DNA of 64,000 bases from Elusimicrobiota bacterium (lineage in GTDB: Bacteria > Elusimicrobiota > Elusimicrobia > 2-01-FULL-59-12): contig JBAZWU010000011.1 of assembly GCA_041660185.1 (NCBI GenBank), forward strand, positions 28,883 to 92,882, given 5' to 3'. The notes beneath the pieces were generated by a model. It was not told the origin of the DNA. It saw nothing but the letters and a program-made list of their open reading frames with translations, and searched no databases. Below are positions 8,129 through 62,697 of the stretch, piece after piece; the first letter of the stretch is position 1, and each line of letters begins with the position of its first letter. A program made the translations under genes and the position numbers.

Positions 8129-8364
8129 GTAATTATTTTACCTATTTGCTGATGGCGAAGGGGGTGTCCCAGCGCAAAACGGTCAAGTTTTTGCTGAATG
8201 AAACCACAGTCGTCATCCCCCGCGGTTGTTGGCGGGGGATCTCTCCGTCAATGATGGATCCTCCGCCAGTGGCTGCGGAGGATGACGACGTGAGTGACCG
8301 CGGGGATGACGTCAAGGGCGGCTTACGCATCGGATTATTTAGGTGAATGAAGTAAAATATAGAT

Positions 8365-26756: not shown

Positions 26757-26886
26757 CCCTCACCCCAACCCTCTCCCTCAGCAGGGGGAGGGAGTTTCAG
26801 ATTCTCTGCACGTTTCCTTTCCCTCTCCCTGTTGAGGGAGAGGGAAAGCCGGACGGCCGCAGGCCGGACAGGCGCGGGTGAGGGCA
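26757..26886. repeat. ~130-bp composite palindromic repeat (P/G/E-coding 'GEG' element), copy A, intergenic between convergent genes
   Basis: 'ccctcaccccaaccctctccctcagcagggggagggag' ... 'ccctctccctgttgagggagaggg' ... 'gggtgaggg'. It contains nested hairpins with 10-bp perfect stems. The family recurs at 49348, 58021, 58447 and 59307. Confidence 0.8.
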
Positions 26887-31386: not shown

Positions 31387-31442
31387 CCTAAAACCCTCTT
31401 TTGAAGATCGCACATATCGTCACCCCCGAGCACCACCCTAGC

Positions 31443-31568
31443 CGTCATCCCCGGCAGCCACTGGCCGGGGATCCAAACAGTCTTGACGTCAACGTATAGA
31501 TTCCCCGCCAGTACCCGCGGGGAATGACGAATGATTGGCAGCGCCAGAATCCGCGGGGGATGACGTTT
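31443..31568. repeat. tandem double-hairpin repeat, family 'CGTCATTCCCCGCGG...CCGCGGGGAATGACG', copy 1 (intergenic)
   Basis: 'gtcatccccggcagccactggccggggatcc' ... 'ttccccgccagtacccgcggggaatgacg' ... 'ccgcgggggatgacg'. Related copies are at 33432-33490 and 44037-44127. Confidence 0.75.
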
Positions 31569-33431: not shown

Positions 33432-33490
33432 CCGTCATCCTCCGCGACCGCTGGCGGAGGATTCCCCGCCAGAACCCGCGGGGAATGACG
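33432..33490. repeat. double-hairpin repeat (CGTCATTCCCCGCGG family), copy 2, between carbamoyltransferase stop and GT-fusion start
   Basis: 'ccgtcatcctccgcgaccgctggcggaggattccccgccagaacccgcggggaatgacg'. Confidence 0.75.
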
Positions 33491-35272: not shown

Positions 35273-36937
35273 TTGGTATATTTTTACCTGATGATTTGGA
35301 CAAAAAATAGAGTCGGATTTCTCTTTGTCTTTCTGGGTTTACTTCAAGCCTGGGCGAACCGGTTTTACATGAATTCCGACGGGATCTCCTACATCGAGAT
35401 CGCGCAGGCGTACGCCCGGGGTCAGTGGCAGCAAGCCTTCAACACCTATTGGAGTCCGCTGTACTCCTGGATTCTCGCCATTGTGTTCCGGCTCTTTAAG
35501 CCTTCTTTGTTCTGGGAGTTCCCCCTGGTCCATCTGGTTAATTTTCTGATCTACCTGTTTACGCTGGCCGCTTTCAGCTATCTGCTGAAGCAATTTCTCA
35601 GGTGGCAAGGAGTACAAGAACCTTCCTTGCGCCGGGTTTGGATCTGGCTGGGATATTCACTCTTTCTCTGGTGCGCCTTAAGCGCCGTCAGTCTCTATTT
35701 GGTCAGCCCGGATCTGCTGACGGCCGGCATCATTTTCCTGGCCGCGGGACTCTGGATTCGTCTTCAGCAAGGCGAGACCACCTGGACCCTCTTCGGTTTA
35801 TGGGGTGCGGTTTTAGGGATCGGGTATCTGGCCAAAACCTTCATGTTCATTTTCGGTTTCTTGTGGATCGTCGCCGGCGTCGGCTGGGCGGTCTGGAAAC
35901 GGAATTCCAACATCAACCGCTACAGCGCTGCTTTGGCAGGATTTCTCTTCATCGCCGTTCCTTTCGTCGGAGCGATCTCCAAAGCCAAAGGTCAATGGAC
36001 TCTGGGAGAAGCCGCCCCGATCAATTACGCCTTTCATGTTAACCGGGCGCCAATTCTCCCTTTCTGGCGCGGGGATTTTCCGCCGGGCAGCAAGGGAACG
36101 CATCCCCCCCGCTTGATCATGTCCATGCCGCGCGTTTATGCGTACGACCGGGACATCCCCGCTAGTTATCCCATCTGGTATGACCCCTCTTACTGGATGG
36201 AGGGACTGCGGCCCCGCTATGGCCTGATCGATCACTGGCGCTCGCTGCGGATGCGTTTCAACGACGATACCCACCTGCTTTTGTACTCGCAAGGGAGTCT
36301 ATGGGCGGGAGCTCTGATTCTTCTCTGGGGTGCTAAAAGACGGAAACCCGGAGCGATGCTTCTGCTTCCGGGCCTTTTGGGAGTGGCGATCTTTGCGATA
36401 GTTCTGGTGGAACCCCGTTATATCGGTCCCTTTGTCGTTTTAATCTGGTTCGGCGTATTTTCGGGGATGGAAGTCCCGACGGAAGAGATGGCCCGGAAGT
36501 GGTTCGGCTGCGTGGTATGGGCGATGCTTCTCAACCCGCTGGTCTATGTAGGATATGAAACCGCTAACGCGCTCCAAAGAACGGTACGGCAGACGCTGAC
36601 CTTTCCGCACACCCGGAATCATGCGTACTGGCAGGTCGCGCAAGACCTGCACCAGTTGGGACTCAGGGAACACGACCGCGTGGCCTGCATGTTTGAAAAA
36701 GGTTATGGACAATATTGGGCACATCTCGGGGCGTTTCGCTTGGTGGCAGAAATTCCTTTTCCGGACGATGTGTCGCAAGCCCAACCGCCGCTCATGGCCG
36801 CCATCGCCGATGTCCTGCGGCAGGAAGGGATCCGCGCCATCGTGGCATGGCCTCACGCGGTTTCCCCCCACGTTTTAAAAAACCTTGGCGGTTGGCAAGA
36901 GCTGAAAGACGCCCCTTTTGTCGTTTATCTCCTATGA
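35273..36937 (+). CDS. GT-C fold membrane glycosyltransferase (ArnT/PMT-like), paralogue 1
   Basis: Polytopic N-region with 'NSDGISYIEIAQAYARGQWQQAFNTYWSPLYSW' (D-x-x-Y-x-x-A ... W-x-x-P motif of PMT/ArnT family) and a soluble C-domain. About 40% identical by eye to the next gene. Confidence 0.6.
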   Translation: MVYFYLMIWTKNRVGFLFVFLGLLQAWANRFYMNSDGISYIEIAQAYARGQWQQAFNTYWSPLYSWILAIVFRLFKPSLFWEFPLVHLVNFLIYLFTLAAFSYLLKQFLRWQGVQEPSLRRVWIWLGYSLFLWCALSAVSLYLVSPDLLTAGIIFLAAGLWIRLQQGETTWTLFGLWGAVLGIGYLAKTFMFIFGFLWIVAGVGWAVWKRNSNINRYSAALAGFLFIAVPFVGAISKAKGQWTLGEAAPINYAFHVNRAPILPFWRGDFPPGSKGTHPPRLIMSMPRVYAYDRDIPASYPIWYDPSYWMEGLRPRYGLIDHWRSLRMRFNDDTHLLLYSQGSLWAGALILLWGAKRRKPGAMLLLPGLLGVAIFAIVLVEPRYIGPFVVLIWFGVFSGMEVPTEEMARKWFGCVVWAMLLNPLVYVGYETANALQRTVRQTLTFPHTRNHAYWQVAQDLHQLGLREHDRVACMFEKGYGQYWAHLGAFRLVAEIPFPDDVSQAQPPLMAAIADVLRQEGIRAIVAWPHAVSPHVLKNLGGWQELKDAPFVVYLL

Positions 36938-38592
36938 GACTGAATTTTAGACGAACCTTCTGGCTTCTGGCTGTTCCCCTTGGATTTTTCCAAGCCTGGG
37001 CCCTCCGGTTTAACATGGACCCCGACGGGATTTCTTATCTCGAAGTGGCTCAAGCCTATGCGCAAGGCCGATGGAACGACGCCTTCAACGCCTACTGGAG
37101 CCCGCTCTTTTCATGGATCCTGGCGGTCTTCCTGAAAGTGGTACATCCTTCCTCTTACTGGGAATTTCCGCTGATTCACCTGATCATTTTTTTCATTTAC
37201 CTGTTTGTGCTGGCAAGCTTTGACGACCTGCTCCGGCAGTTCCTGGCCTGGCACAAGACCCCCGCCGCCGATGCGGATCCCGGCTGGCACACGCTTCCGG
37301 AAGCGCTCTGGGAATGGATCGGGTACGCTCTGATTCTCTGGTGCACACTCTGGGCCCTGGGCCTGGCGCAAGCCACACCCAACCTGCTGGTGAGCGGATT
37401 TATTTTTCTGTCGGTCGGAATCGCTTTCCGTCTGCAGCGGGAAAATGTCTCCGGATGGCTTTATGTTTTATCGGGAGTCGTCCTTGGATTCGCTTATTTT
37501 GCCAAAGCCTATGCGTTCCTTTTCGGAGTGGCCTGGATCCTGGGGATGACGGGCGCGGCCTTTCTTCAGCGGCGGCCTATTCGACGTTATGCGCTGACCT
37601 TGGCTGTTTTTATTATCGTAACCGGCCCTTATATAGGCCTGTTGTCCCGGACGAAAAAACACTGGACCTTTGGCGACGCTTCATCCATCAATTACGCGGT
37701 CCATGTCAATCAAGCCCTTCCCTTGCCTTTCTGGACCGGGGATTTCCCGCCTGGCAGCGTGGCCAAACGCCTGGTTCGACAAATCATGAACCATCCGACG
37801 ATTTATGAATTTGATCGAGACATTCCTGCCAGTTTTCCCCTCTGGTATGACCCGGCTTACTGGATGGACGGCTTACGGCCCCGTTTTTCTGTCCGGGATC
37901 ACCTGAGCGCCTGGCGCGGGCATCTGAATGAATACACCCGGCTTCTTTTTTATGAACAGATCAGTCTCTGGACCGGAACGTTGATTCTCTTCGGGATGGC
38001 CCGGCGCTGGAAGCGGCTGATCAAACACGGGTGGCCGCTGCTGGTGCCGGCGCTGATCGGCTTTGGCATCTTCGCTCCGGTGCTGATGGCCAACAGCTAC
38101 ATCGCGCCGTTTATTGTTCTCGGCTGGCTGGGGATTCTGGCTGGGTTGGAATTTCCAACCGATGGGGTCACTTCGCGATGGTTGAGGCGCGTCGCGGGCG
38201 TTATGATCGCTGTCCCGCTTCTGCAAGTCGGTTACCGAATCGTCTCAGTTGTGCCGACGCGTTCAACCCCGTTCCACTGGCAGGTGGCGCAGAAGCTGCA
38301 CGAGTTAGGCCTGCGTCCGGGGGACCGGGTGGCGAGCTTTGACACCGGCTTTGGACAGTTCTGGGCGCATATCGGCGGATTTCGCCTGATCGCTGAAATT
38401 ACCGTTCCTGAGGAAGTGACCCTTATTACTCCGTCGAAGATGACGGAAATCGTTGGGGTCTTACGGGCGAAGGGCATTCGCGCATTCGTGGGACGGCAGG
38501 AACTGATTCCAGAAGACAGCCTCGGCGGCTGGCAACAACTTCACAACACACCTTACGCCGTTTACCTGATCAACCCAACTGAGGGGACGTAG
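36934..38592 (+). CDS. GT-C fold membrane glycosyltransferase (ArnT/PMT-like), paralogue 2 (ATGA overlap with paralogue 1)
   Basis: 'MRLNFRRTFWLLAVPLGFFQAWALRFNMDPDGISYLEVAQAYAQGRWNDAFNAYWSPLFSW' parallels paralogue 1. Its ATG at 36934 overlaps the TGA of the upstream gene. Confidence 0.6.
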   Translation: MRLNFRRTFWLLAVPLGFFQAWALRFNMDPDGISYLEVAQAYAQGRWNDAFNAYWSPLFSWILAVFLKVVHPSSYWEFPLIHLIIFFIYLFVLASFDDLLRQFLAWHKTPAADADPGWHTLPEALWEWIGYALILWCTLWALGLAQATPNLLVSGFIFLSVGIAFRLQRENVSGWLYVLSGVVLGFAYFAKAYAFLFGVAWILGMTGAAFLQRRPIRRYALTLAVFIIVTGPYIGLLSRTKKHWTFGDASSINYAVHVNQALPLPFWTGDFPPGSVAKRLVRQIMNHPTIYEFDRDIPASFPLWYDPAYWMDGLRPRFSVRDHLSAWRGHLNEYTRLLFYEQISLWTGTLILFGMARRWKRLIKHGWPLLVPALIGFGIFAPVLMANSYIAPFIVLGWLGILAGLEFPTDGVTSRWLRRVAGVMIAVPLLQVGYRIVSVVPTRSTPFHWQVAQKLHELGLRPGDRVASFDTGFGQFWAHIGGFRLIAEITVPEEVTLITPSKMTEIVGVLRAKGIRAFVGRQELIPEDSLGGWQQLHNTPYAVYLINPTEGT

Positions 38593-38658
38593 TTGCAACT
38601 TTGCATCGACTACGCCTCTCGTTGGCAAAGACAGCTGCAAAGTTGCAACTACGTCCCC
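38583..38658. repeat. REP pair (BIME-like): 23-bp 'GGGGACGTAGTTGCAACTTTGCA' and its inverted copy separated by 30 bp
   Basis: Forward copy 38583-38605, inverted copy 38636-38658. They sit between convergent gene ends. Confidence 0.85.
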
Positions 38659-39158
38659 TCCCCCAGACCCATCAGATCGACCATCGCTTGTTCGACGAGG
38701 CGGATCATGGGTGAGGGTTCTGTGCTGGGGCTTGGCGGCGGAGGATTATGGCTGGCTTTTCGGATCGCTTCCCGTAAATCAAAAATCTCATAGGCGGGGA
38801 TGACCCGCCCTTCATCGGCCAGTGCGCGGATCAACTGAAGCTGATGGTTATTCACATGCTCGCCATAGCGAGCCAGGCGCGGCACCACAATGGGGACTTT
38901 ACCGAGTGAGATCGCCTGCAGAAGCGTCCCGCAGCCGCCGTGACAGATGATGAGCCGGGCCTCCTTCAGGCACTCGAGAAAACGGTCCGCGGAAAGAAAA
39001 GCTTCGGTCCGGCTGTGACGGGGTTGGAAGTTTTCATTATGGCCCGTCTGCATAAAGACCGGCTCGCCTTGAAAGAGCGGGGTACCGGCCAGCGCGTCGA
39101 CCGCTTCCAACAGCCGGGAGAACCCCTGAGTCGCGTTGCCGACGGTCACAAAGATCAT
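38649..39158 (-). CDS. Alg13-like glycosyltransferase subunit (GT28 C-terminal domain; PssE-like)
   Basis: 'MIFVTVGNATQGFSRLLEAVDAL...LIICHGGCGTLLQAISLGKVPIVVPR...HQLQLIRALADEG' matches the Alg13/MurG-C pattern. The start is placed at MIFVTVG; an earlier in-frame Met at ~39260 is possible. Confidence 0.7.
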   Translation of the reverse strand: MIFVTVGNATQGFSRLLEAVDALAGTPLFQGEPVFMQTGHNENFQPRHSRTEAFLSADRFLECLKEARLIICHGGCGTLLQAISLGKVPIVVPRLARYGEHVNNHQLQLIRALADEGRVIPAYEIFDLREAIRKASHNPPPPSPSTEPSPMIRLVEQAMVDLMGLGEGT

Positions 39159-42921: not shown

Positions 42922-45900
42922 AACACTTCTTTCCTTCCGTCCAGAATGGTTTCAAGACGCTGACGAAAACGCTCAACGGAAAACGTTTGTTCCAAGTGTT
43001 CCCGGCCCGCTTCTCCGAACCGGCTGGCCAGTGCCGCGTCTTTCAACAACAACACCAGAGCCGCGACCAGGGACGATCCCTGGCGGGGTTCCACGAGCAG
43101 CCCGGTCACATCATGAACAACCACTTCCGGAACACCACCGGCCCGCGCGCCCACACAGGGCTTGCCATGCGACATCGCTTCCAGAAAAACGATCCCGAAT
43201 CCTTCGCCTTCGCTCGGCAGGGCGAACACATCGCAGGCCTCGTAATAGGATGGAAGATCGGCTCCGGATACACGGCCGGCAAATATAACCTGTTGATTAA
43301 CTCCACAGCGCCGGGCCAAGGCTTCCAGACGGGAACGGTCAGGACCGTCGCCGACCACCACCAGAAAAGCCGCTGGGACGTCCCGCCGGACATCCGAAAG
43401 ACGTTCGATCATCCAGTCGATATTTTTGTAATGTTCCGCATCCGACAGCCGGGAAACAGTCAGAATCATCGGGCCCTCGGGAAGAGACAACTCCCGCCGT
43501 GTTTTCATGACCACGCGGTTGTTAAAAGCAGGATCGATCGTATCCGGAAAAACATCCCCCTGCTCCGGCGATAGCCCATTGCGCGAGAGCATCTGATCGA
43601 GCGTATACCGGCTGACCGCCAGAATCCGTGACATCTTTCGCAAACCCAGACGGCGCAAAAGCGGCAGCTTCTGCCAGACATCTATTCCATGAGCGATCGC
43701 ATAGGACTGGCTGTTCTTTTTTTGCATCCAGACGAGCGGCGAGAAATGCGCATGGCCAAAGAACGCACCGTCCGCTTTTCGTAAGGAACAAACCGCCTGT
43801 TTGAAGAACCTGAGCCGGCTTCCTCCAAAAGAACGCACGTCGGCACCGGCCAGCCGCCGGGCGGTCGGGGCATCATGCAAGACCAGAAACTGCAGCGCCC
43901 ATCCTCGCTCTTTGGCGATGGCGCGCAAGGCCGCCACCAAAGCTCGATTGAAGGTCGTAATACCGCCCAGCGCTCCAAAGAGATCCGTCAGCAAGACAAC
44001 CCATTGCGGTTTGGGGACAAATCGAAAGGTCCTGAAGTCGTCATTCCCCGCGGCCACTGGCGGGGAATCCAAAATTGTCGTACGGCATTGCTGGATCCCC
44101 GGCCAGTTACCGCCGGGGATGACGTCATTTGATCCGCCATAAAATCGAGCCACAATCACCGTGGCCCAGGCGCGGGACCAGTGCAGGCGGCCGGCGCGAA
44201 CCCCGGCCCAGATGGCTTGCACCGCTTTCCGTTCCAGCGGCGTATGCTCCAGCGCCATGGCTTCGAAATCATCCGCTTTTTGACGGAACCACTCGCCGAA
44301 AGGAAACGTGAAACCTTGCTTCGGGCGATCCCACACCTCCCGCGGAAACTCCGGGCCCATCGCTTCGACCAGAAGCCCTTTGGACTGGCTGGACCGCCGG
44401 ACGTCCGGCGGCAGGCGCAGGATTTCCTCAACCAGACGATGGTCTAGAAACGGCACACGCAGCTCCAGCGAATGGGCCATGCTCATCACATCGCTGTCTT
44501 TCAGCAACTGGTTCTGGAGATAGTGATCGAACTCCAAAAGTCGCAGGCGTTCTTCCTCCGGGAAGCGCTTGAGGACGTCGACCCCTTCAGGAACCCAGCG
44601 CGCGCGTTCGGTATCGCGTACGCTTACACCGAGAAGCCCGGCGATGCGTTCCGGCGGAAAAAGAGCTCGGAAAAGACGATACGGAGAGGCCGGATCCATA
44701 TCCCTCAGACACCAGAGCTTGTCCGCAACACCGGGATGGGACGGACGGCTCAGGGATTCCACCAGGCTCAGCAAAGGACCCCGCACACCCGGCGGCACGC
44801 ACGAAATCCCACGCACAGCAGCGCCGATCCACCGGGCGTGATGGAGATGGCGGTATCCCGAAAACAGCTCGTCCCCCCCCAGTCCGGAGAGGACCACTTT
44901 GAGTCCGGCCTCGTGCGCGGCTTTGGACACGACATAGGTATTGATGCCGTCGAGTGTGGGCTGGTCCATCGCCGCCAGCATCCGGGGCAGTTCGTCTTCA
45001 AACGCCTGCCGGCGCACCCGGATTTCCCGGTGGTCTGTGCCGTACTGGCGCGCCACCAGGCGCGCGTAACGCCCCTCATCGTAGGCGGGTTCATCGAAGA
45101 GGACCGACAACGTCGTGACATGCCCCGGCTGAAGACGGCTGGCCAGCGCCGTCAGTGAAGAGGAATCAATGCCTCCGCTGAGGAAAATTCCAAGCGGGAC
45201 ATCGCTGATCAAGTGCCCTTGAACCGCGTCCAGCAGCTGCCGGCGTGTTTCTTCCACGGCTTCCAGACGGGTGACGGGCCGGACGGGTTGATCCAAAACT
45301 CGAGCCAGGTCCCAGTAGTTTGTGGGTTCCACCGGACCGCGGCCCAACGACAGATAATGTCCGGCTGGAAGACTCCAGACCTTTTGAACGGTGGTTAGAG
45401 GAGCAGGGACCGATCCAAGCTCCAAAAATCGCAGGAGGCTCTCGGCGTTTAGCCGGTCGGGGATAAGCCCGCTGGCTTGCATGGCCCGCACCTCGGAGGC
45501 AAAAAGAATTTTCTCGTGGTCTTGATAGTAGTAAAGCGGTTTAATGCCGAAACGGTCACGGGCCAGAAACAGGCGCGGGCCGGAGCGAGCCGACAGATCC
45601 AAGAGCGCGAAAGCGAACATTCCCCGCAGGTGTTCCAGAAGCCCTTCCATCCCCCACGCTTCATATCCGTGCACCAGGACCTCGGTATCGGTGCGCGAAA
45701 CGAAACGATGGCCCGCGGTTTCCAGTTCCCGGCGCAGATCCTGAAAATTGTAGATTTCCCCGTTGAAAACAACCTGAACGGTCTGGTCTTCATTGGCCAT
45801 CGGTTGGCGGCCGGCGGAGGAGGTGTCCAGAATGGAGAGACGGCGGTGGCCCAGGAGCGCCTGCGGATGGCGGAATAACCCCTGATCGTCAGGGCCGCGG

Positions 45901-49347: not shown

Positions 49348-49436
49348 CCCTCACCCCTACCCTCCCCCTCCGCAGGGGGAGGGAGCACAACCTATCTTCC
49401 CCCTCTCCCTCAGGAGGGAGAGGGCTGGGGTGAGGG
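49348..49436. repeat. P/G/E-coding palindromic 'GEG' repeat, copy B (intergenic, upstream of wza-like gene)
   Basis: 'ccctcacccctaccctccccctccgcagggggagggag...ccccctctccctcaggagggagagggctggggtgaggg'. Confidence 0.8.
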
Positions 49437-52209: not shown

Positions 52210-53367
52210 TTGATGTCTTTGGCTATGAAATCCCCTCACAAACCGGCGTTCGAGCTTCAACTCCTATGCAAACTCCTGGCTTTGCGGCCAAGCCAGGAGG
52301 AATGTCTTTCAGACCTCCGCGCACCAGGTTTTTGCTGGGATCTATTCCTTCAGTTGGCGGAGTACCACGGGGTGATCGGATTTCTCTACGAGGCCCTGAC
52401 CGAAACCGGCCTGGCCCGGGAAGTTCCACCCAAGCTCCTGGAAGCGCTGCGGCATTCCACTCTGGTTCTCCTGGAAGAGCACCTGCAGCACAGGAGCGCG
52501 ATCCGGAAAACGCTGGAAACCCTGAACGCGGCCGGGTTGGAATTTATCGTTATTAAAGGGTGGTCACACGCCGAATCACTTCATGGGAACCCCTGCGCCC
52601 GTCCCATCACGGACCTGGACCTTCTCGTACACGACACGAAGGCGGCTCAAGCCCTGCTGAAACAACAGAGACTGCCGGACCCATCGATCGTAGACTGGCA
52701 TATCTATCCCACAAACACGTCGGATCTGCCGTCCCGCATGCGGTGCCTGCAGCTCGACATCCAGACGCTCTGGGCGGATTCGCGCCTCGCCACGATCACA
52801 GACACGCCGGCGCGCGTTCTTTCTCCGGCTGACCAGGTCATCGCCCTGGTGATCGACTTCACGATTTCGCATGGGTTCGGGAGGCTACTCCTTTTAAAGG
52901 AGATCCTGCTTCTGGCTGAAAAAGTCGGATGGGATGCGCTGGTGAAGAGGGCTCAACTATTCCAGGCTGACATTTTGCTGTACTTGACCCTCCGCATGGG
53001 AGAGGAACTTCTGCGATTCCCGGTTCCCCTCGATATTTTAAAAATCTTAGGGACTCGCTTAAGGCAAGAAGAACACTGGCTGGAAAAACGGCTGATTCAA
53101 AATCCGCTTTTTACCCCGGCCCGGTATTTCTGTATTCCGATTCTCCTGCCTTCCTGGGCCGATCGCCTGAGTTTTGCCAAAGAACTGCTCTGGCCTCCCC
53201 CCTATTGGTTCGAGCTCCGCAGCGAAAAACCGTCTCTCTGGCGCCACCTCATCCATGACGCGACGCTTATCGGCAAGGCATGCGCCATTTTATGGAACGT
53301 CAGGGGACGTAGTTGCAACTTTGCAAAAGGTGCCGGAAAAAATCCTTTTTTCCCCAAGACCGGGTAA
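52210..53367 (+). CDS. uncharacterised nucleotidyltransferase family protein (PF14907/NTP_transf_5-like), RiPP-cluster accessory type
   Basis: 'LNAAGLEFIVIKGWSHAESLHGNPCARPITDLDLLVHDTKAAQALLKQQ' matches the IKG...R..DIDLLV...D signature of this family. Confidence 0.65.
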   Translation: MMSLAMKSPHKPAFELQLLCKLLALRPSQEECLSDLRAPGFCWDLFLQLAEYHGVIGFLYEALTETGLAREVPPKLLEALRHSTLVLLEEHLQHRSAIRKTLETLNAAGLEFIVIKGWSHAESLHGNPCARPITDLDLLVHDTKAAQALLKQQRLPDPSIVDWHIYPTNTSDLPSRMRCLQLDIQTLWADSRLATITDTPARVLSPADQVIALVIDFTISHGFGRLLLLKEILLLAEKVGWDALVKRAQLFQADILLYLTLRMGEELLRFPVPLDILKILGTRLRQEEHWLEKRLIQNPLFTPARYFCIPILLPSWADRLSFAKELLWPPPYWFELRSEKPSLWRHLIHDATLIGKACAILWNVRGRSCNFAKGAGKNPFFPKTG

Positions 53368-53423
53368 AACAAGAAATATAGGCCATTTCCTGTCTCGTTG
53401 TGCAAAGTTGCAACTACGTCCCC
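53303..53423. repeat. REP pair: forward 23-bp REP (53303-53325) and inverted copy (53401-53423) with 75-bp spacer
   Basis: Exact matches to GGGGACGTAGTTGCAACTTTGCA and its reverse complement. They sit between the nucleotidyltransferase and ABC ATPase genes. Confidence 0.85.
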
Positions 53424-53446
53424 TGACGTTTTATATACTCAAACGT

Positions 53447-55745: not shown

Positions 55746-55785
55746 GCCACCCTCGGCCCGGCAGAAAAACGAGCCGGGAGCACTA

Positions 55786-55863
55786 GGGGACGTAGTTGCA
55801 ACTTTGCATAAGGTATTCATATGACACAAGATACCTTTGATGCAAAGTTGCAACTACGTCCCC
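55786..55863. repeat. REP pair: forward REP (55786-55808) and inverted copy (55841-55863) around a palindromic 32-bp spacer
   Basis: Exact 23-bp matches. The spacer 'taaggtattcatatgacacaagatacctttga' is itself an inverted repeat. Confidence 0.85.
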
Positions 55864-55887
55864 TGGCGGTCTTTCGCGACATCTCCG

Positions 55888-56091: not shown

Positions 56092-57141
56092 TTAGCTCTC
56101 CCTCTGTGCGATAAACATCGCTTTTTTCTCCGCGACTTCCCGAAAATAGGGCATGCAAGGGGCATCAAATGCTTTTTGGTCCAACCAACCATCCATGCTT
56201 CCCCGATCGCAATGAAACGCGATCGGACAGGATGAGCACGCGTAGGCAGGGCCCGGCTTCTGCGCCGCGACAAACTTCACCAACGTTTGCCAGCCTTTTT
56301 CAACCGACCCCGCCGTCACATCATACGACGGATGATGGATGCAGACACAAAGATTCATCCGGCCATGAGGCGTCAAAGCGGCGTTGCTCTTGCCACAAAG
56401 ACAATCGAACAGTTTCCCGGCGGAACCGCATTTCCCCTCCAAGGATCCGCCGGCCTCTTGCATTGGCTTTCCGCTATTTTCACGCCATATCTCGAAAACC
56501 CTGGCAGGCGACAACCGGTACATCAAGGGTTCTTTTGAACCGTCCACTCTGGGATAGATGTCCGTGCCGATCCGATAGGGCAGTTGACGGGACCGGGCGA
56601 AGTCTTTCATGGGCTCCAGTTCGTGTTCATTCAGCGTCATCAAAACGAGTTTCAGCAGGATGGGGATATGCCTTTCTTTCAGCCAATCAACCCCCTCGAC
56701 AAAATGAGCGTAGGAACCGGGGATGCGCGTCACAGATTCATAACTGTCAGCCGTGGCGCCATAAACGGAAATTTCCACCAGATAAGGATCCAACTCCGCC
56801 ATCTGATCCGCCAGCGCCGGCGTGATCAGAGTGGCGTTCGTAGTGATCGTAATCACCATCCCAAGTGAGCGGGCATACCGCATAATCTCACAGGCATCCC
56901 GCCGGGTGAACACCTCTCCTCCGGTGAAACCGATCCACAGGCATCCCTGAGCCGCCATCTCATCTAACAGTCGGTAAACCTGTTCCGTGGTCAGTTCCTG
57001 TTTCGCTTCGTGGGTTGTGTTATAACAGTGCACGCAGCGCAGGTTGCAGCCGTACGTCAGCTCCACCGTGGCCTGAATCCACTGCGGACGGGCCTTGGCG
57101 TCCTCACTCAGCTGATCGATGAATTGATCAAACTCTTTCAT
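56092..57141 (-). CDS. radical SAM/SPASM domain peptide-modifying enzyme (rSAM-1)
   Basis: 'TYGCNLRCVHCY' is CxxxCxxC. The C-terminal Cys-rich SPASM region is 'CGSAGKLFDCLCGKS...CVCIHH...CSSCPIAFHCDRG'. The start is placed at 'MKEFDQ' (14-nt overlap with the kinase gene). Confidence 0.85.
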   Translation of the reverse strand: MKEFDQFIDQLSEDAKARPQWIQATVELTYGCNLRCVHCYNTTHEAKQELTTEQVYRLLDEMAAQGCLWIGFTGGEVFTRRDACEIMRYARSLGMVITITTNATLITPALADQMAELDPYLVEISVYGATADSYESVTRIPGSYAHFVEGVDWLKERHIPILLKLVLMTLNEHELEPMKDFARSRQLPYRIGTDIYPRVDGSKEPLMYRLSPARVFEIWRENSGKPMQEAGGSLEGKCGSAGKLFDCLCGKSNAALTPHGRMNLCVCIHHPSYDVTAGSVEKGWQTLVKFVAAQKPGPAYACSSCPIAFHCDRGSMDGWLDQKAFDAPCMPYFREVAEKKAMFIAQRES

Positions 57142-58012
57142 AAAGATAACGGACGATACGGTTGTCTTGAGTAAAGCGCAGTTCGCCGCTGGGAACATCC
57201 TTGACCAGGCGGGTCGCTGCCTCCACGAGCCGTGCCATGGCTTCCTGATTCCAAAGAGGCAAATACGCTTCCGTGAAAATCGATTTCAATACGGGCTGAG
57301 GCGGCCGCGGGAGAAACTGATTGTCCGTCGCCTGGACCAGAACTGAAAAACGCTTGAGAAGCGCTGCCCCCTTGGAAACCTGCCGAAGCTCGCCGTGCCA
57401 GGGCGTTCCCGCTACGTGCCAGTGTTTTCCCTCCCGCCAGAGAAGAATACGCTCGTCATTCAGCACCTGAGCGGAAGAATGTGTCCGGAAGAGCCTGGAA
57501 ATCGTGGTCTTGCCGGCGCCGGAGTGACCGATGAATGCCAGCCCCTTGCCCGACAGAGAAACCGCTGCCCCATGCAAAATCATCCCTTTCCTCCGAAGCG
57601 CCAGCCAGCCGGTCAGCCACCATTGGATCAAAGGCTCGGCCACATCTCCCAGGTACCACCCCTTCTGGCGAAGCCCGGGTGACCGGTACGTGAGCGGAAT
57701 CAGATGGAGATCGATTTGATCCCACTTCGGGGTGATGAAACACACCTGCCTGGGCAGAAAATGCATTTGTTCCAGAATTTCCAATCGCACTCTGCCCCTC
57801 TCCTGGTAGACGCGCCATTGATTGGGAAGCTCATAAAGGAAGCGGGGCTTCCCATGCGGCTTGGGCGCATCGGTCCGGACCTGGATGGTCACGGTCGGCG
57901 GGAGAGAATTTCTGTCTTCAAAGACACCGCAAAATTCATGCGGCCAATCATGCGGCGGGGTATCCGCGATAAATCGAATGACGGCAGGGCCGATTTTGAT
58001 AGTGAGCTTCAT
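57128..58012 (-). CDS. HPr kinase/phosphorylase C-terminal-domain-like protein (HprK-related kinase)
   Basis: 'GMILHGAAVSLSGKGLAFIGHSGAGKTT' is a P-loop in the HprK-C context. It overlaps the rSAM-2 stop (ATGA) and the rSAM-1 start. Confidence 0.7.
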   Translation of the reverse strand: MKLTIKIGPAVIRFIADTPPHDWPHEFCGVFEDRNSLPPTVTIQVRTDAPKPHGKPRFLYELPNQWRVYQERGRVRLEILEQMHFLPRQVCFITPKWDQIDLHLIPLTYRSPGLRQKGWYLGDVAEPLIQWWLTGWLALRRKGMILHGAAVSLSGKGLAFIGHSGAGKTTISRLFRTHSSAQVLNDERILLWREGKHWHVAGTPWHGELRQVSKGAALLKRFSVLVQATDNQFLPRPPQPVLKSIFTEAYLPLWNQEAMARLVEAATRLVKDVPSGELRFTQDNRIVRYLYERV

Positions 58013-59274
58013 GACGATGCCCCCTCACCCCTACCCTCCCCCTCAACAGGGGGAGGGAGCGTAAGATTTTTCGCGGATGTATCCCCTCTCCCTGCTGAGG
58101 GAGAGGGGCTGGGGGTGAAGGTCAAGATGCTGGCAGTTTGCCGAGCTTTCGCTACTTCACAGAAATAAGGGACCGGCGCTTCCATGGACCCTGCCTCATG
58201 GATCGCCATCACGGGATTTTTGTCGCAGAACAGATGGGAGGAACAACTCCGGCACGCCGACTCCCCGGTGTAGCGGGCCTGATTGATTTCCTCGGCTGAG
58301 CGCTGGAACGCCTCGGAAACAGGGATCGTTTTCAGATCATACGACGGCCAGGTGGTGAACGTGCAGGGGCGAAACACACCGTACGGACTGACCGTCAATT
58401 GATTGGTCCCGCATCCGCAGCGAAAGAGCCGGTCATCCGGGGGGGGACCCTCACCCCAACCCTCCCCCTCAACAGGGGGAGGGAGTATGAAATCTGCGGG
58501 GGATCCCCCCTCTCCCTGTTGAGGGAGAGGGCAAGCAGGACGACCGCTAGGTCGGACAGGCGCGGGTGAGGGTTTACACTCCTCTGCCACCTCCAGTTCA
58601 GCCACCTCGGCTCCAGATAACCGGTACTGCGTGGAGGAAAGGTCCCCGTTCAAACGCGGGTAAATCGTGGGATAGAGACTGAAATCCACCCCCAATCCTT
58701 CCACGTACGCTCTGATCTCGCCCAATTCCTGACGATTAACGGTCATGGCCTTGGTTTTGATCGCCACCGACAAACGCCGGTCCAGTAACCGGCGGATCCC
58801 TGCCTGAAAACACGCGTAGGAACCCGGCACCTGGGTCACCCGCTCAAAGGTCTCGGCACGAACGCCATGCAAACTCACCTCCAACTGAAAGGGAGGGTCC
58901 TTGGCGAGAAAATCCGCGATCTCGTCCGTGATCGTTGTCCCGTTGGTGAATAACGCGATCAGGAATCCTCTCTCCTTGGCCGCACGATATATATCCTTGA
59001 ATCGCGGATGAAGTACCGCTTCTCCTCCGGTGAGGGTAAGCCAGAGCACGCCGGCGGAGGCCAGGTCGTCAAGAATCCGGATCATTCCCGGCAGCGGCAA
59101 TTCCCGCGACAACGCCGTCGGGGTGTTAAAGGGGTCTGTAAAACAATGGACGCAATGGAGATTACATCGGTAAGTCAGTTCCAACTGTGCCTTGAGAGGA
59201 CTCCGATTTTCGACGCTCCGGGAAAAGACCCGGGCGCTGAACACACTGTACATTTCTTCTTGAAACTTGCTCAT
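58009..59274 (-). CDS. radical SAM/SPASM domain enzyme (rSAM-2) carrying in-frame repeat-encoded P/G/E-rich linker and C-terminal tail
   Basis: 'TYRCNLHCVHCF' is the rSAM motif. SPASM 'CGCGTN...CTFTT...CRSCSSHLFCDK'. The segment 'PLPQQGEGGSPADFILPPPVEGEGWGEGPPP' between the rSAM and SPASM domains and the tail 'LPPPVEGEGRGEGASS' are encoded by the palindromic repeats at 58447-58572 and 58021-58120. Confidence 0.8.
   Translation of the reverse strand: MSKFQEEMYSVFSARVFSRSVENRSPLKAQLELTYRCNLHCVHCFTDPFNTPTALSRELPLPGMIRILDDLASAGVLWLTLTGGEAVLHPRFKDIYRAAKERGFLIALFTNGTTITDEIADFLAKDPPFQLEVSLHGVRAETFERVTQVPGSYACFQAGIRRLLDRRLSVAIKTKAMTVNRQELGEIRAYVEGLGVDFSLYPTIYPRLNGDLSSTQYRLSGAEVAELEVAEECKPSPAPVRPSGRPACPLPQQGEGGSPADFILPPPVEGEGWGEGPPPDDRLFRCGCGTNQLTVSPYGVFRPCTFTTWPSYDLKTIPVSEAFQRSAEEINQARYTGESACRSCSSHLFCDKNPVMAIHEAGSMEAPVPYFCEVAKARQTASILTFTPSPSPSAGRGDTSAKNLTLPPPVEGEGRGEGASS
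58021..58120. repeat. P/G/E-coding palindromic 'GEG' repeat, copy C (overlapping rSAM-2 3' end / HprK-like start)
   Basis: 'cccctcacccctaccctccccctcaacagggggagggag...cccctctccctgctgagggagaggggctgggggtgaagg'. Confidence 0.8.
58447..58572. repeat. P/G/E-coding palindromic 'GEG' repeat, copy D (long variant), inserted in-frame inside rSAM-2
   Basis: 'ccctcaccccaaccctccccctcaacagggggagggag...cccccctctccctgttgagggagagggcaagcaggacgaccgctaggtcggacaggcgcgggtgaggg'. It shares its tail with copy A (26757-26886). Confidence 0.8.
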
Positions 59275-59306
59275 TTCCTAAACCCTCTAACGAACACATC
59301 TACGGA

Positions 59307-59396
59307 ACCCTCATCCGGCCTGCGGCCACCTTCCCTCTCAACAGGGGGAAGGACATTCTCCCTCTCCCTGTTGAGGGAGAGGGGACGGGGGTGAGG
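59307..59396. repeat. P/G/E-coding palindromic 'GEG' repeat, copy E (intergenic between rSAM-3 and rSAM-2)
   Basis: 'ccttccctctcaacagggggaagga...ccctctccctgttgagggagaggggacgggggtgaggg'. Confidence 0.8.
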
Positions 59397-59397
59397 G

Positions 59398-61575
59398 TTA
59401 AATGGTTTGGACAGCACCGATCGCCCGAAGTTCCGACAAATACGTCGCGACGTCCTGTTCGGCAACAGCGGAATCCACTGTAAATGCTTTTCCCAGCAAC
59501 GCTGTCAGTTCCCGGCCCGTACGCCGGCCGTCAATCTGTTCCCACAGGAAAGCGCCGACCTCATTCAACGTATAAAGAGATGGCTCCTGATTCGGCTGCC
59601 GGTTCGCGGGAACCAGAACCATCTCCCCCGCCACCCGGCGGGCCACCATCGTCGGGCACTTTTGAAACCGAAAATCCAGCTGTTCTGTTGAAGCCGCCAT
59701 GATCGTTCCTCCGCTTTTTTTCAGGTTCTGTATGATGCTGTTCCAGTTCTGTCGGGCGGCCGGCCACTCCGGGTCCAACTCCATCAAGCGCTCGTATTCC
59801 CGCAGGGCCGGTTCCCACTGTTTGAGAAATTCTTCCTTGTAAGCGGGCGTAGCATACAACGTTCGATAAGAGGGGTCCAGGGAAATCATCCGCTCCCAGG
59901 CTTCCCGGGCCGACGGGACATCGTTCCGCCCGAGGGCTTCGCAGACTTGCTCATAAACGCGCGCCGCCGAGCCGGCAGGCGGTTGATCCTCGACGAGAGC
60001 AGCGGGATCCAGCAGCGCGCGCTGAATGAGATCGCCGAAATATTTGTACCGCAGCGGCGTGTATCCTTTATTGACCGAGTACGAAAGGGTCACAAAGTCC
60101 GTCGGCAGCTCAACGGCCCGGAGACGCCGGAGAAAGTGACTCGGCTGCAGCCAGGGACCGGCGTAGTCGCTGTCAAAATACGGAAACAATCCAGTCCCGT
60201 CGATGTGGCGAGTCAGGAGATAATCCACATCGATGTCCAGGAGAACCGGTTTTATAAAGCGGGGCAGCGACTCCAGCCGGCACACCGTCAACGGGCATCC
60301 CATCAATAGGAGATGAATCCCTGTCTCGGAAACCCGTAAAGGGCCTGCCGAATCCGGTCTCGCATGAATCATTTCGTTAATCCATTGAATGAGTTTCTGC
60401 CGTTGGTCAGGGGTTTCCCAAAAACCATCAGGGATGACCCAATAAAGCTCGCGGATGAAGCCTTCCCGGATGGCTGGATAAAGGAAATTACCACTGTCCA
60501 TCGCTTTATGCGGAGGATGGTCATCGATCCAGAAAAAATCCAGATGACCGTCCAGATGAATCAGGGTTCGGCCCTGGACTCCAGCGTCTTTCCAGAGGGT
60601 GTAGGCCGTCTCATGATCTTCCATCAGATGGATCGACTTCGAAGGAATCGGATCAGCCGCCGCCAGGGATTTCTTTCGGGGGCAGGGAAAGCTCGGCAGC
60701 GCTTTGTAAAACCCTTCCAGAAAGGAGCCTCGTCTCAAGTCGTAGCTGGCCCGCCGGTTGTTGGAACACAGCTGAAGCTGCCCGTACGCATCGATGTGGA
60801 ATTTGTAGCGTCCCCCCTGACAGGGGAAGTCATCGGGGTATGTGGCGTGGCCGTCACGCTCCCGCTCCGCCCAGAGCTGAGGGTCCTGACGCTCGATGGC
60901 CGCCAGGTCTTTGTCGGACAACTGGAATCGCAGAGGGGCTCCACTGCCGGTCAGATCATCGAGCAGGTGTTCTCCAAACTGAAAAGACACGCCGGGACCG
61001 AAGTCGTCCACATAACGTTTGATCGCCAAAATCTCGTCCCGGTTCAGCGTCGTCCCCACTGTTTTCAACGTCACCGGGATCTGCCGTTCCATCAAAAGCC
61101 GAACCGCCTCCACATTCAGGGGACGTAGTTGCAACTTTGCACAAACAGCATCAGAGATCGCATGAAGGCTGATTTCCACCCGCACGGGAGGCATCCTGGC
61201 CCATTGATCGGCGATCTCGCGCGTGATGAGCGTTCCATTGGAGAAAACCGTAATGAGAAATCCAAAACGGTGAGCGGTTTCATAAATCTCCATGAAATCA
61301 GGCCGGCACAGCGGCTCCCCGCCGGTGAACGTGACTTCCAGGCAACCCGCGGCCTGGATCTCATGGAGAATGCGAAGGATGTCAGCGGTAGGAAGCTCCT
61401 GACGGATCCGCTCCGGCGTATTGAAACAATCCGTATAGCACATGGCACACGTCAGATTGCACCGGCAGGTGAGTTCCCACTGGCCGACCAAAGGAGCGCG
61501 ACCCTGGAGAGAACGGGCCAAGACTTGATCGCCGAAAACCTGCGATGAGCGGGTCGGGAAAGCGGGGATGGCCAT
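59398..61575 (-). CDS. multidomain protein: radical SAM (twitch/SPASM-like) domain + ~300-aa uncharacterised domain + TPR-like segment + C-terminal PqqD-like (RRE) domain (rSAM-3)
   Basis: 'LTCRCNLTCAMCY' is the rSAM cluster motif. The middle has a 'HLDGHLDFFWIDD' metal-site-like motif. The C-terminus 'LYTLNEVGAFLWEQIDGRRTGRELTALLGKAFTVDSAVAEQDVATYLSELRAIGAV' matches the PqqD fold pattern. The start is placed at 'MAIPAF'; the listed ORF starts within a REP. Confidence 0.75.
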   Translation of the reverse strand: MAIPAFPTRSSQVFGDQVLARSLQGRAPLVGQWELTCRCNLTCAMCYTDCFNTPERIRQELPTADILRILHEIQAAGCLEVTFTGGEPLCRPDFMEIYETAHRFGFLITVFSNGTLITREIADQWARMPPVRVEISLHAISDAVCAKLQLRPLNVEAVRLLMERQIPVTLKTVGTTLNRDEILAIKRYVDDFGPGVSFQFGEHLLDDLTGSGAPLRFQLSDKDLAAIERQDPQLWAERERDGHATYPDDFPCQGGRYKFHIDAYGQLQLCSNNRRASYDLRRGSFLEGFYKALPSFPCPRKKSLAAADPIPSKSIHLMEDHETAYTLWKDAGVQGRTLIHLDGHLDFFWIDDHPPHKAMDSGNFLYPAIREGFIRELYWVIPDGFWETPDQRQKLIQWINEMIHARPDSAGPLRVSETGIHLLLMGCPLTVCRLESLPRFIKPVLLDIDVDYLLTRHIDGTGLFPYFDSDYAGPWLQPSHFLRRLRAVELPTDFVTLSYSVNKGYTPLRYKYFGDLIQRALLDPAALVEDQPPAGSAARVYEQVCEALGRNDVPSAREAWERMISLDPSYRTLYATPAYKEEFLKQWEPALREYERLMELDPEWPAARQNWNSIIQNLKKSGGTIMAASTEQLDFRFQKCPTMVARRVAGEMVLVPANRQPNQEPSLYTLNEVGAFLWEQIDGRRTGRELTALLGKAFTVDSAVAEQDVATYLSELRAIGAVQTI
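61119..61141. repeat. single REP copy lying in-frame inside the rSAM-3 coding sequence (encodes ...AKLQLRPL...)
   Basis: Exact 23-bp 'ggggacgtagttgcaactttgca'. Protein length around it appears normal for the rSAM fold. Confidence 0.8.
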
Positions 61576-61592
61576 GCCGTTATCGTAGGACG

Positions 61593-62621
61593 TCAGGGGA
61601 CGTAGTTGCAACTTTGCATATTGAGTCTTTCCTTAAGCTCAAACCGATGGGCCAGGCGCTGACCTCGTTCAAATGCCCTGCTGGCGGTGCTCGTTGATAG
61701 AACGAGTTGCTTCCCCATCCCGGTGACAGATTGCTTAAACCAGACTACTCCGGCATATACCGCCATGGCCTTCGCATCTGACAGCGCGCGCCGCTGACCC
61801 GTTTCGGAAAAGTAATGGGGGTCTTCTCCGGTCAGATCGGCAATAAGATCCAATACCTTTTCAAAATTGATTGATTTTGGAATGGGCGTTTCATCACAAC
61901 CGTCTTTCGCCTTGCGCAGGGTTTCTTCCACAAAAGCACTGTCCCCCAGCAAACGTAGGTCGTACGCGTAGGCTTCACCGCTTCTGATGGCCTGCAGAGC
62001 AGGACCTCCCCCTCCCCAACTACGAATAAGTCCGCCTCCTTCTAACTGGTCCTGTCGTTTCTGACTCCAAGCCTCCATTACAAATAATTCGTAGTTTGCC
62101 CGCGCCTGGCGCAAAGTCGGGCCAAAACGTTCAAGAACTTTCCCGGCAACCTGCCAGGGCCTGTCTAAGGTACCCATCAGAGCCGAGTGGCTTGTCCAAG
62201 GATAGACAGCCAGTTCAGAAGGCGATCGGACAATTCCCGCGCGCACTGGGTTAAGAGCGATATAACGTATCAGCTCCAGAAAATAGGGATCCTCCTGACA
62301 GATGATGTCCTTGTATCGGTTTTGAAACAAATGACCGGCGCGCTGATAGCGCAGGTTAAATGAGACGGCATACCCAGTCAAAAGCTTTTGCATGACCCGA
62401 GAAATGCGCGTGGAAGCCGTCTGGAGCAACAGGTGCAGGTGATTAGGCATGAGCGCCCAGGCGTAACAGAGGGTTTTCGTTTCTTGGAGGATGCGACCTA
62501 ACCGGTCGGCGAATTCGGAGTAATCTCGATTTGATCTAAAAATAGAGCGTTTTTCAATTCCCCTCGCGATTACGTGATGAAAGAGTCCAGGGAAGTCGAT
62601 ACGAGGTAAACGTGGCATCAC
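61593..62621 (-). mobile_element. REP-associated tyrosine transposase (RAYT; IS200/IS605-family Y1 HUH transposase) with ~190-aa C-terminal extension, flanked by inverted REPs (61596-61618 and 62665-62687)
   Basis: 'MPRLPRIDFPGLFHHVIARGIEKRSIFRSNRDYSEFADRL...YAWALMPNHLHLLLQT' contains the HuH motif (HLH) and the Y1 architecture. The REP at its 3' end encodes the C-terminal '...MQSCNYVP'. An inverted REP with 1 mismatch lies 44 bp upstream of the start. Confidence 0.75.
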
Positions 62622-62697
62622 TTACTTAGATAAAGTTTTTGGCGATATATTCGAGGGGGTGCTATGAAAAGTTGCAACTACGTCCCCTGACGTTGGT

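Follow-up and report, generated by a model that had tools for sequence, protein, structure and literature searches.

The radical S-adenosylmethionine (SAM) gene rSAM-2 of an Elusimicrobiota bacterium contains a 126-bp palindromic repeat that is in frame with the coding sequence on both sides. The segment lies at positions 58447 to 58572 of a 64,000-nt stretch of contig JBAZWU010000011.1 (GCA_041660185.1; positions 28,883 to 92,882 of the forward strand), referred to here as the window. The repeat family to which it belongs is called the GEG element here. Our favored explanation, to which we assign a probability of about 0.85, is that the segment is a copy of a nonautonomous, nested-palindromic mobile repeat that is read in frame as a loop of an intact rSAM-2. 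GEG itself appears to be best read as a repetitive extragenic palindromic (REP) doublet (i.e., REPIN-like) or as a miniature inverted-repeat transposable element (MITE)-like element, tolerated here as a disordered loop. The initial annotation of the window, which was based on the sequence alone, had likewise suggested that a MITE-like element is tolerated here and translated as a linker. This suggestion gained support from the homologues of rSAM-2, the variable length of the linker, an AlphaFold2 model, the conservation of the host protein, and the recurrence of the element in genes of JAYWEN01, an Elusimicrobiota metagenome-assembled genome (MAG).

The core motif of the family (CTCTCCCTGTTGAGGGAGAGG) occurred nine times in the window with up to three mismatches and was absent from 100 shuffled sequences. 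Repeat finding and an nhmmer profile identified exactly five GEG elements (Table 1), three of which lie within 1.4 kb around rSAM-2. The elements are 89 to 136 nt overall (89 to 128 nt in the window), and their termini, CCCTCACCCC and GGGGTGAGGG, are inverted repeats. Each consists of two inverted 36-nt modules (CCCTCACCCC-NN-CCCTCYCCCTC-NNNN-GAGGGRGAGGG) separated by a spacer of 10 to 35 nt. All copies in the window form a 9- to 10-bp closing stem and two 10-bp hairpins, to which the long form adds a third, GC-rich hairpin. Folding of the copies as single-stranded DNA gave z-scores of -4.4 to -7.9 relative to shuffled controls, and their predicted RNA folds ranged from -51 to -80 kcal/mol. 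The copy inside rSAM-2 was 82 to 100% identical to the intergenic copies and has remained a near-perfect palindrome. This segment was confirmed as an in-frame member of a palindromic family, and the three copies previously reported as intergenic are indeed so. One of these abuts the TAA stop codon (59398 to 59400) of the upstream radical SAM/PqqD gene and makes up 90 of the 123 nt between that stop codon and the rSAM-2 start at 59274.

An Rfam search of positions 57900 to 59500 in E-value mode returned generic microRNA-hairpin matches alone, all far under the gathering scores; no curated Rfam family therefore fits GEG. A scan of the three copies around rSAM-2 for terminators and promoters flagged no site, and none of them is followed by a T tract. 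A terminator or promoter role for these three copies was therefore rejected.

Table 1. Coordinates of the GEG elements and associated genes (window positions unless a locus is given)
Feature	Positions	Strand or context	Remarks
rSAM-2, host gene, 421 aa	58009-59274	Minus	Single continuous frame; about 346 aa without the two inserts
HprK-related/ScmC-like gene, downstream	57128-58012	Minus	ATG overlaps the rSAM-2 TGA (ATGA, 58009-58012)
rSAM-1, paralogous radical SAM/SPASM-like gene	56092-57198	Minus	Without any element; internal insert-free comparison
rSAM-3, upstream radical SAM gene with C-terminal PqqD domain	59398-61611	Minus	Same cassette, of the ribosomally synthesized and posttranslationally modified peptide (RiPP) type
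REP-associated tyrosine transposase (RAYT)-like gene, 342 aa, Y1 transposase domain	61593-62621	Minus	PF01797, E = 1.2e-9; NF047646, 62.8 bits (cutoff, 80)
GEG, long form, 126 nt	58447-58572 (nhmmer, 58448-58572)	In frame in rSAM-2	Residues 235-276
Closing stem of the preceding copy	58448-58456/58564-58572	In frame in rSAM-2	
Hairpin A of the same copy	58460-58483	In frame in rSAM-2	
Hairpin B of the same copy	58508-58531	In frame in rSAM-2	
Hairpin C of the same copy	58541-58554	In frame in rSAM-2	
GEG, short form, about 100 nt	58022-58121	In frame at the rSAM-2 3' end	Residues about 385-418
GEG, 90 nt	59308-59397	Spacer between the upstream rSAM/PqqD gene and rSAM-2	
GEG, long form, 128 nt	26757-26884	Intergenic	Between two convergent open reading frames
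GEG, short form, 89 nt	49348-49436	Intergenic	Between two minus-strand open reading frames
JAYWEN01 GEG, locus L008	1331-1422	In frame	
JAYWEN01 GEG, locus L009	2688-2776	In frame	
JAYWEN01 GEG, locus L011	3002-3093	In frame	
JAYWEN01 GEG, locus L015	4156-4247	In frame	
JAYWEN01 GEG, locus L016	570-661	In frame	
JAYWEN01 GEG, locus L018	1508-1600	In frame	

rSAM-2 is one continuous open reading frame (ORF), as had been annotated, and its product is identical to an NCBI protein (MFA5976317.1; "MAG: radical SAM protein [Elusimicrobiota bacterium]"). The Radical_SAM domain spans residues 32 to 178 (PF04055; E = 4.7e-16), and the CX3CX2C motif (C37, C41, and C44) is invariant. The C-terminal part is a Cys-rich SPASM/twitch-like domain (C286, C288, C304, C341, C344, C350, and C372) that matches region 336 to 446 of the SCIFF-maturase model. 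Its spacings are of the SPASM type (C288-X10-G299-X4-C304, C341-X2-C344-X5-C350, and C372). The earlier SPASM label held only in part: six of the seven canonical Cys residues of the motif CX9-15GX4C...CX2CX5CX3C...C are present (the X3C Cys is absent, the residue being P354) and the AlphaFold2 fold resembles those of PqqE, SkfB, SuiB, and anSME, but there was no Pfam SPASM match at an E value of ≤0.01.

The internal copy adds 42 codons encoding the peptide PSPAPVRPSGRPACPLPQQGEGGSPADFILPPPVEGEGWGEG, which contains 11 Pro, 8 Gly, and 4 Glu residues. The initial annotation had taken residues from about 235 to 285 as repeat encoded; this is correct for residues 235 to 276 but not beyond, the flanking PPPDD being native. 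It had also described a second copy as the C-terminal tail of the protein. This copy is indeed in frame, although it lies at 58022 to 58121 rather than at 58021 to 58120, and it is followed by four native codons (G-A-S-S) and the stop codon. Since the conserved ATGA overlap with the next gene is preserved, the second copy represents an in-frame insertion before the native stop codon and not an accidental read-through. The same stop/start overlap with the next (ScmC-like) gene was found at two homologous loci (L021, 1237 to 1240; L024, 7107 to 7110).

Alignment with insert-free relatives and structure prediction, both proposed along with the initial annotation, bore out its reading. All 81 homologues of rSAM-2 (≤58% identity; 340 to 402 aa) lacked both inserts. 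The linker from PRLNG to FxCxCG was 35 to 85 aa long in 73 homologues (median, 49 aa), compared with 73 aa in rSAM-2 (31 aa without the insert). The segment from FxCxCG to the C terminus was 138 aa in rSAM-2 and 105 aa without the second copy, the homologue median being 107 aa. The internal insert is located between a conserved linker Cys (C233, in the motif AEEC) and the CxC motif (FxCxCG). An AlphaFold2 model based on an 82-sequence alignment had a mean predicted local distance difference test (pLDDT) score of 87.9 and a predicted template modeling score of 0.83. The pLDDT fell below 50 only at residues 239 to 265, inside the insert, and at residues 403 to 421, in the tail. Both of these segments were modeled as coil, while the flanks of the internal insert were modeled confidently, with scores above 90. 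The insert may form a loop at the protein surface.

The remainder of the protein appears to be intact. rSAM-2 retained all 40 invariant columns of the alignment and 93 of the 98 columns that were at least 90% conserved, within the range of the homologues (86 to 100%), and its five departures were all conservative. On the basis of these conserved columns, we see no sign of decay in rSAM-2.

The linker in question has also received other large inserts in other organisms. In one robust case, that of the homologue P0056, a palindrome of about 115 nt that is unrelated to GEG sits in frame in this linker (L021, about 775 to 890), with 24-bp terminal stems and a predicted RNA fold of -54.6 kcal/mol. 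Another homologue (P0051; L025, about 2180 to 2300) is extended by 40 aa, and this region contains a GC-rich hairpin and, probably, an outer inverted repeat of 14 to 15 nt. Repeat finding did not recover this gapped outer repeat, which is rich in A/T runs, and we therefore count a further unrelated palindrome in P0051 as a possible case only. These comparisons suggest that the interdomain linker of this rSAM family is a permissive site for large insertions. It is occupied by at least two, possibly three, unrelated palindromes in different organisms, a point of use to know in engineering.

We scanned one genome per species for the 36-nt module and found it in 20 stretches, 13 of which were from JAYWEN01. 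The others came from CAYJUC01, which is an uncultured MAG, and from MAGs assigned to Agitococcus and WOR-3; in the WOR-3 MAG, only half elements were present. At the loci from CAYJUC01 (L002, L003, L006, and L013), Agitococcus (L005 and L012), and WOR-3 (L014 and L017), the left module either pairs with a different second hairpin or stands as a lone half element, which points to a modular superfamily of GEG-type repeats that may be widely distributed across lineages.

In JAYWEN01, 6 of about 16 GEG copies fall within long ORFs and have extended stretches of coding sequence on either side. By Pfam, these ORFs encode a CysN/APS kinase, a ferrochelatase, a squalene/phytoene synthase, a DNA polymerase III delta' subunit, a ResB-like protein, and Mfd, and in several of them the domain match is broken at the element. 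In Mfd, the insert lies between the UvrB-interaction and RID domains. Ferrochelatases of the Protein Data Bank align with the JAYWEN01 ferrochelatase as two blocks that flank the insert. An orthologue with 80% identity over the alignment has 31 fewer residues, and what it lacks is exactly the insert. We take this presence/absence pattern as evidence that the ferrochelatase probably gained its insert recently. In a further ferrochelatase (P0128), a GEG-like but shorter peptide (SPSPPSPSPSLRERVAKPGEGE) occupies this site (alignment columns of about 195 to 225); it may represent a copy that has decayed or one that arose independently.

These data also bear on the reliability of the assembly. A repeat wrongly threaded into rSAM-2 during metagenome assembly is conceivable in principle because the genome is a short-read MAG, the repeat has many copies, and the rSAM-2 protein is known from a single contig. 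Nevertheless, the sequences flanking the insert are the correct, collinear, in-frame halves of one gene, and the inserted copy has a sequence of its own (long form with a unique spacer) that is identical to no other copy. Moreover, an independent MAG from another study has the element in frame in six genes. We therefore consider the probability of such an artefact negligible.

The reading frame of the inserts was uniform. Among about 21 GEG copies examined in all, 7 were internal to genes and several were C-terminal cases, with C-terminal extensions at L001, L010, and L019. Each of the seven internal copies, including that of rSAM-2, opens with CCC-TCA in codon phase 0, and the preceding codon is NAA or CTA. 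The length from CCCTCA to GAGGG is 3n-1 in these copies, such that one flanking base brings the addition to 3n nt. Two phases of the element are free of stop codons and all seven copies use the same one, which would happen by chance in about 0.8% of cases (binomial) if both phases were equally likely. This bias may reflect a target preference or a tolerance of that particular peptide. The 5' flank of GEG copies is almost always (T/A)AA and the 3' flank is T rich, i.e., T(T)(T/A), which suggests that GEG prefers an A-rich target. Both the rSAM-2 and the holB in-gene copies are preceded by TGTAAA. Many copies begin or end 0 to 2 nt from a TAA stop codon (L007, 3984 and 4521; window, 59397/59398; L004, 3893 to 3896; L020, 5392 to 5395), and the two at L007 and the one in the window directly adjoin it.

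From these patterns one may go further and suppose that a GEG master copy evolved compatibility with translation (i.e., a 3n length free of stop codons, insertion after NAA/TAA triplets in phase 0, and a disordered Pro/Ser/Gly/Glu-rich peptide), as an Elusimicrobiota counterpart of the protein-coding palindromes of Rickettsia. We regard this extension as speculative and somewhat unlikely. If it were true, a large share of new in-gene insertions would survive, and GEG would repeatedly supply the conserved proteins of a free-living phylum with new loops, linkers, and C-terminal tails. In rSAM-2, some of the native linker beside an Fe-S ligand may even have given way to the element.

The frame bias could also be seen as a trace of co-option, in which the insert would serve as a functional flexible linker, or would provide a cluster ligand through its Cys248, with the family being selected as a source of linker diversity. 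MAFFT aligns Cys248 with the conserved linker Cys, and the other long-form copy has TTC where the rSAM-2 copy has TGC. In addition, all seven internal copies use the Pro/Ser/Gly/Glu-rich frame although two phases are open. However, the native Cys233 persists, with AEEC matching the acidic-x-C pattern of the homologues, AlphaFold2 assigns the insert no structure, and the frame bias has simpler causes, such as the target preference or peptide tolerance mentioned above. Because the insert is still a near-perfect palindrome close to the intergenic copies, there is also no sign that selection at the protein level has remodeled it. We consequently judge co-option to be very improbable.

We prefer, instead, the following course of events. 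By transposition, a GEG element would have entered the coding part of a gene of the radical SAM peptide-maturase type and hit the linker that joins the radical SAM barrel to the Cys-rich C-terminal domain. The gene would have stayed open because the length added is divisible by three and the frame used is free of stop codons. Given that the linker was already variable in length among homologues, the insert would be translated as a 42-aa Pro/Gly/Glu-rich, probably disordered loop, with neutral or nearly neutral effects. A second copy would have inserted likewise about four codons before the stop codon, with the ATGA overlap preserved. More generally, in-gene GEG insertions would survive if they add 3n nucleotides, offer a stop-free frame, and fall in a loop or linker that tolerates flexible sequence. 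The initial annotation had left the choice between a recent insertion and a mechanism generating linker diversity; since nothing shows a benefit of the insert or selection for it, the former appears to be favored.

Several observations weigh against a simple mobile insertion of this kind. No convincing target-site duplication or consistent direct repeat was present at the GEG copies, whose flanks look like extensions of the palindrome rather than duplications. Neither a cognate transposase nor a parent insertion sequence was found in the window or at loci L001 to L023. A tblastn search of the window and loci with an IS200 TnpA query gave no matches, but it was too weak a test, since it also missed the RAYT-like gene that was found by Pfam. 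Without the insert, the rSAM-2 linker would be shorter than the homologue minimum of 35 aa, and the spacing from Cys233 to FxCxCG would be 8 aa (median of homologues, 18 aa), with K-PPPDDRL alone remaining. Because this linker is shorter than that of any homologue, the insertion may have been accompanied or followed by a loss of native codons, or the event may have been less simple than cut-and-paste. The best relative of rSAM-2 is only 58% identical, and with no close orthologue there is no nucleotide-level empty site for its internal insertion. The in-gene copy is also predicted to form an mRNA hairpin of about -80 kcal/mol within the coding sequence. Finally, the whole cassette around rSAM-2 has been struck by two repeat families, as relaxed selection would also produce.

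The window and the JAYWEN01 loci had no orthologous overlap, and therefore no empty/filled site comparison exists between the two MAGs. A metagenome scan with the window-type motif yielded two short contigs only, neither from the source organism, and thus no independent assembly of the junctions. A profile of eight element-encoded peptides matched nothing at an E value of ≤1e-3 among 5.8 billion proteins, but this query is too short and of too low complexity to survey the range of host proteins.

The homologous loci L024 and L025 have the gene order PqqD-rSAM-ScmC-rSAM, with PF27840 as the ScmC match, and the genes of the window follow the same order. In the window, however, the protein at the ScmC position has only a weak match to HprK_rel_B (E = 4e-6), and in a comparison with SynChlorMet-type cassettes, the ScmE/ScmF scores were 67 to 73 bits, far below the cutoff of 400. 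The RAYT-like gene directly upstream of the cassette is the sole Y1/RAYT-like gene in the window (NF047646 is the NCBIfam model of REP-associated tyrosine transposases). It is flanked by inverted 31-nt repeats (61590 to 61620 and 62663 to 62693), which belong not to GEG but to a second family, and the arrangement is that of a classic RAYT plus its REPs. This family is defined by the 23-mer GCAAAGTTGCAACTACGTCCCCT, which has eight perfect copies and one with a single mismatch in the window. Its sites (38575 to 38666, 53291 to 53435, and 55778 to 55871, as well as 61118, 61595, and 62666) bracket the rSAM cassette, and most copies are inverted doublets 30 to 75 nt apart that form long hairpins (z-scores, -10 to -12). 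Because of these hairpin-forming doublets, the GCAAAGTTGCAACTACGTCCCCT family looks like the REPINs of the neighboring RAYT.

A perfect 29-nt copy of this second family (61116 to 61144) is in frame in the radical SAM core of rSAM-3, where it reads CAKLQLRPL. The rSAM-3 homologues have the motif F-x-x-VTQ-x-PGS at this position and the window gene is four residues shorter, such that the copy looks like a replacement and not a simple insertion. The database protein that matches rSAM-3 (P0241; 681 aa) begins at Met57 and, because of this annotated start, lacks part of the CX3CX2C motif.

Such a concentration of repeats raises the question of whether selection on rSAM-2, or on the cassette as a whole, has relaxed and decay toward a pseudogene is under way, or whether the insert has already killed the enzyme by parting Cys233 from the cluster ligands. 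Among the rival explanations, this one carries the most weight, followed by co-option and then by assembly artefact. It would account for the clustering of three of the five GEG copies around rSAM-2, for the RAYT-like transposase gene and its own repeats flanking the cassette, for the repeat that replaces a conserved motif in rSAM-3, and for the separation of the conserved linker Cys from the CxC motif. On the other hand, the 421-codon ORF is intact with its conserved columns kept, translational coupling to the next gene through the ATGA overlap is preserved, and the same element is in frame in the normally indispensable holB, mfd, and hemH genes of a related MAG. We therefore consider relaxed selection improbable and retain the interpretation of a tolerated in-frame insertion.

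Apart from these elements, hairpins of about 30 nt (GATYCCCCGCCAG...CCGCGGGGAATGACG) make up a third repeat family in the window, present singly and as inverted pairs at 8246 to 8296, 31434 to 31565, 33433 to 33490, and 44032 to 44124. Two adjacent plus-strand ORFs (35273 to 36937 and 36715 to 38592) share stretches of 71 to 74% identical DNA at an offset of 1.65 kb (35333 to 35478 and 36979 to 37124; 36116 to 36216 and 37783 to 37883), and they look like a tandem gene duplication.

We compared GEG with three classes of known palindromic elements. Like REPINs, GEG consists of two inverted short palindromic units with a spacer, folds as a hairpin, has many copies, and is nonautonomous (PMC3116915, PMC3337134). 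REPINs are almost entirely extragenic, however, with 14 of 1,067 16-mers overlapping genes in Pseudomonas fluorescens SBW25 (PMC3116915), whereas GEG is often genic (coding sequence contains two of the five copies in the window and 6 of the approximately 16 in JAYWEN01). REPs carry a conserved GTAG or CGTC tag at one end (PMC3733652); this tag is not conserved in GEG, where GTAG is present only in the copies with a TA 2-nt spacer (49348 and 58022). In REP-RAYT systems, moreover, the cognate single-copy RAYT gene is flanked by the same REPs, unlike the RAYT-like gene of the window with respect to GEG. As for MITEs, GEG has the characteristic terminal inverted repeats and small size and contains no transposase ORF. 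It also shares a stop-free frame and in-frame gene fusions with the 107-bp Correia/NEMIS, 127-bp ERIC, and YPAL elements (PMC2229807). These elements have defined TA target duplications or known parent insertion sequences, whereas for GEG no clear duplication was seen and no parent sequence was found in the window or at loci L001 to L023.

The closest parallel in behavior is offered by the Rickettsia palindromic elements (RPEs), 105- to 150-bp palindromes that occur in intergenic regions and also, as in-frame fusions, within numerous conserved protein genes (PMC2229807, PMC10969869). Rickettsia conorii has RPEs in 19 protein genes (Ogata et al. 2000/2002, as summarized in PMC10969869 and PMC2229807), and for one RPE-bearing host enzyme (gmk), both translation and activity have been demonstrated (PMC2229807, PMC10969869). 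In-frame fusion by intragenic MITEs is described as "not unusual," RPEs standing out by their frequency, and a 2024 review called it merely "conceivable" that an RPE-like process shapes proteins elsewhere (PMC10969869). In a limited literature collection, we found no paper describing such elements in Elusimicrobiota.

RPEs and GEG are alike in being palindromes of about 90 to 150 bp with terminal inverted repeats and a stable stem-loop fold. Both are located between genes and in frame in unrelated conserved genes, where they keep a conserved frame and add an extra peptide, and in both the host fold appears to be compatible with the insert, for GEG according to the structural model. The intragenic share is large in both. 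They differ in host, with GEG in uncultured free-living Elusimicrobiota and RPEs in obligate intracellular Rickettsia, and in build: GEG is G+C rich with two short hairpin modules and encodes a low-complexity Pro/Gly/Ser/Glu-rich peptide, whereas an RPE forms one long stem. The likeness rests on published descriptions of RPEs; no sequence relationship is expected, and we do not claim membership in the named Rickettsia families. The title of one key Rickettsia paper reportedly calls in-frame palindromes "a unique but recurrent feature" of the genus.

GEG is a different family, from another phylum, with the same behavior, i.e., a second example and not a new mechanism. In-frame palindromes are best documented in Rickettsia, and GEG extends them to uncultured free-living Elusimicrobiota, where it affects at least six housekeeping genes as well as a radical SAM maturase. 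Annotators and users of structure prediction should accordingly be prepared for Pro/Gly/Glu-rich inserts in these genomes and should not take them as a sign of broken genes. Beside the RPEs, GEG provides a second natural system for understanding how selfish DNA turns into protein sequence.

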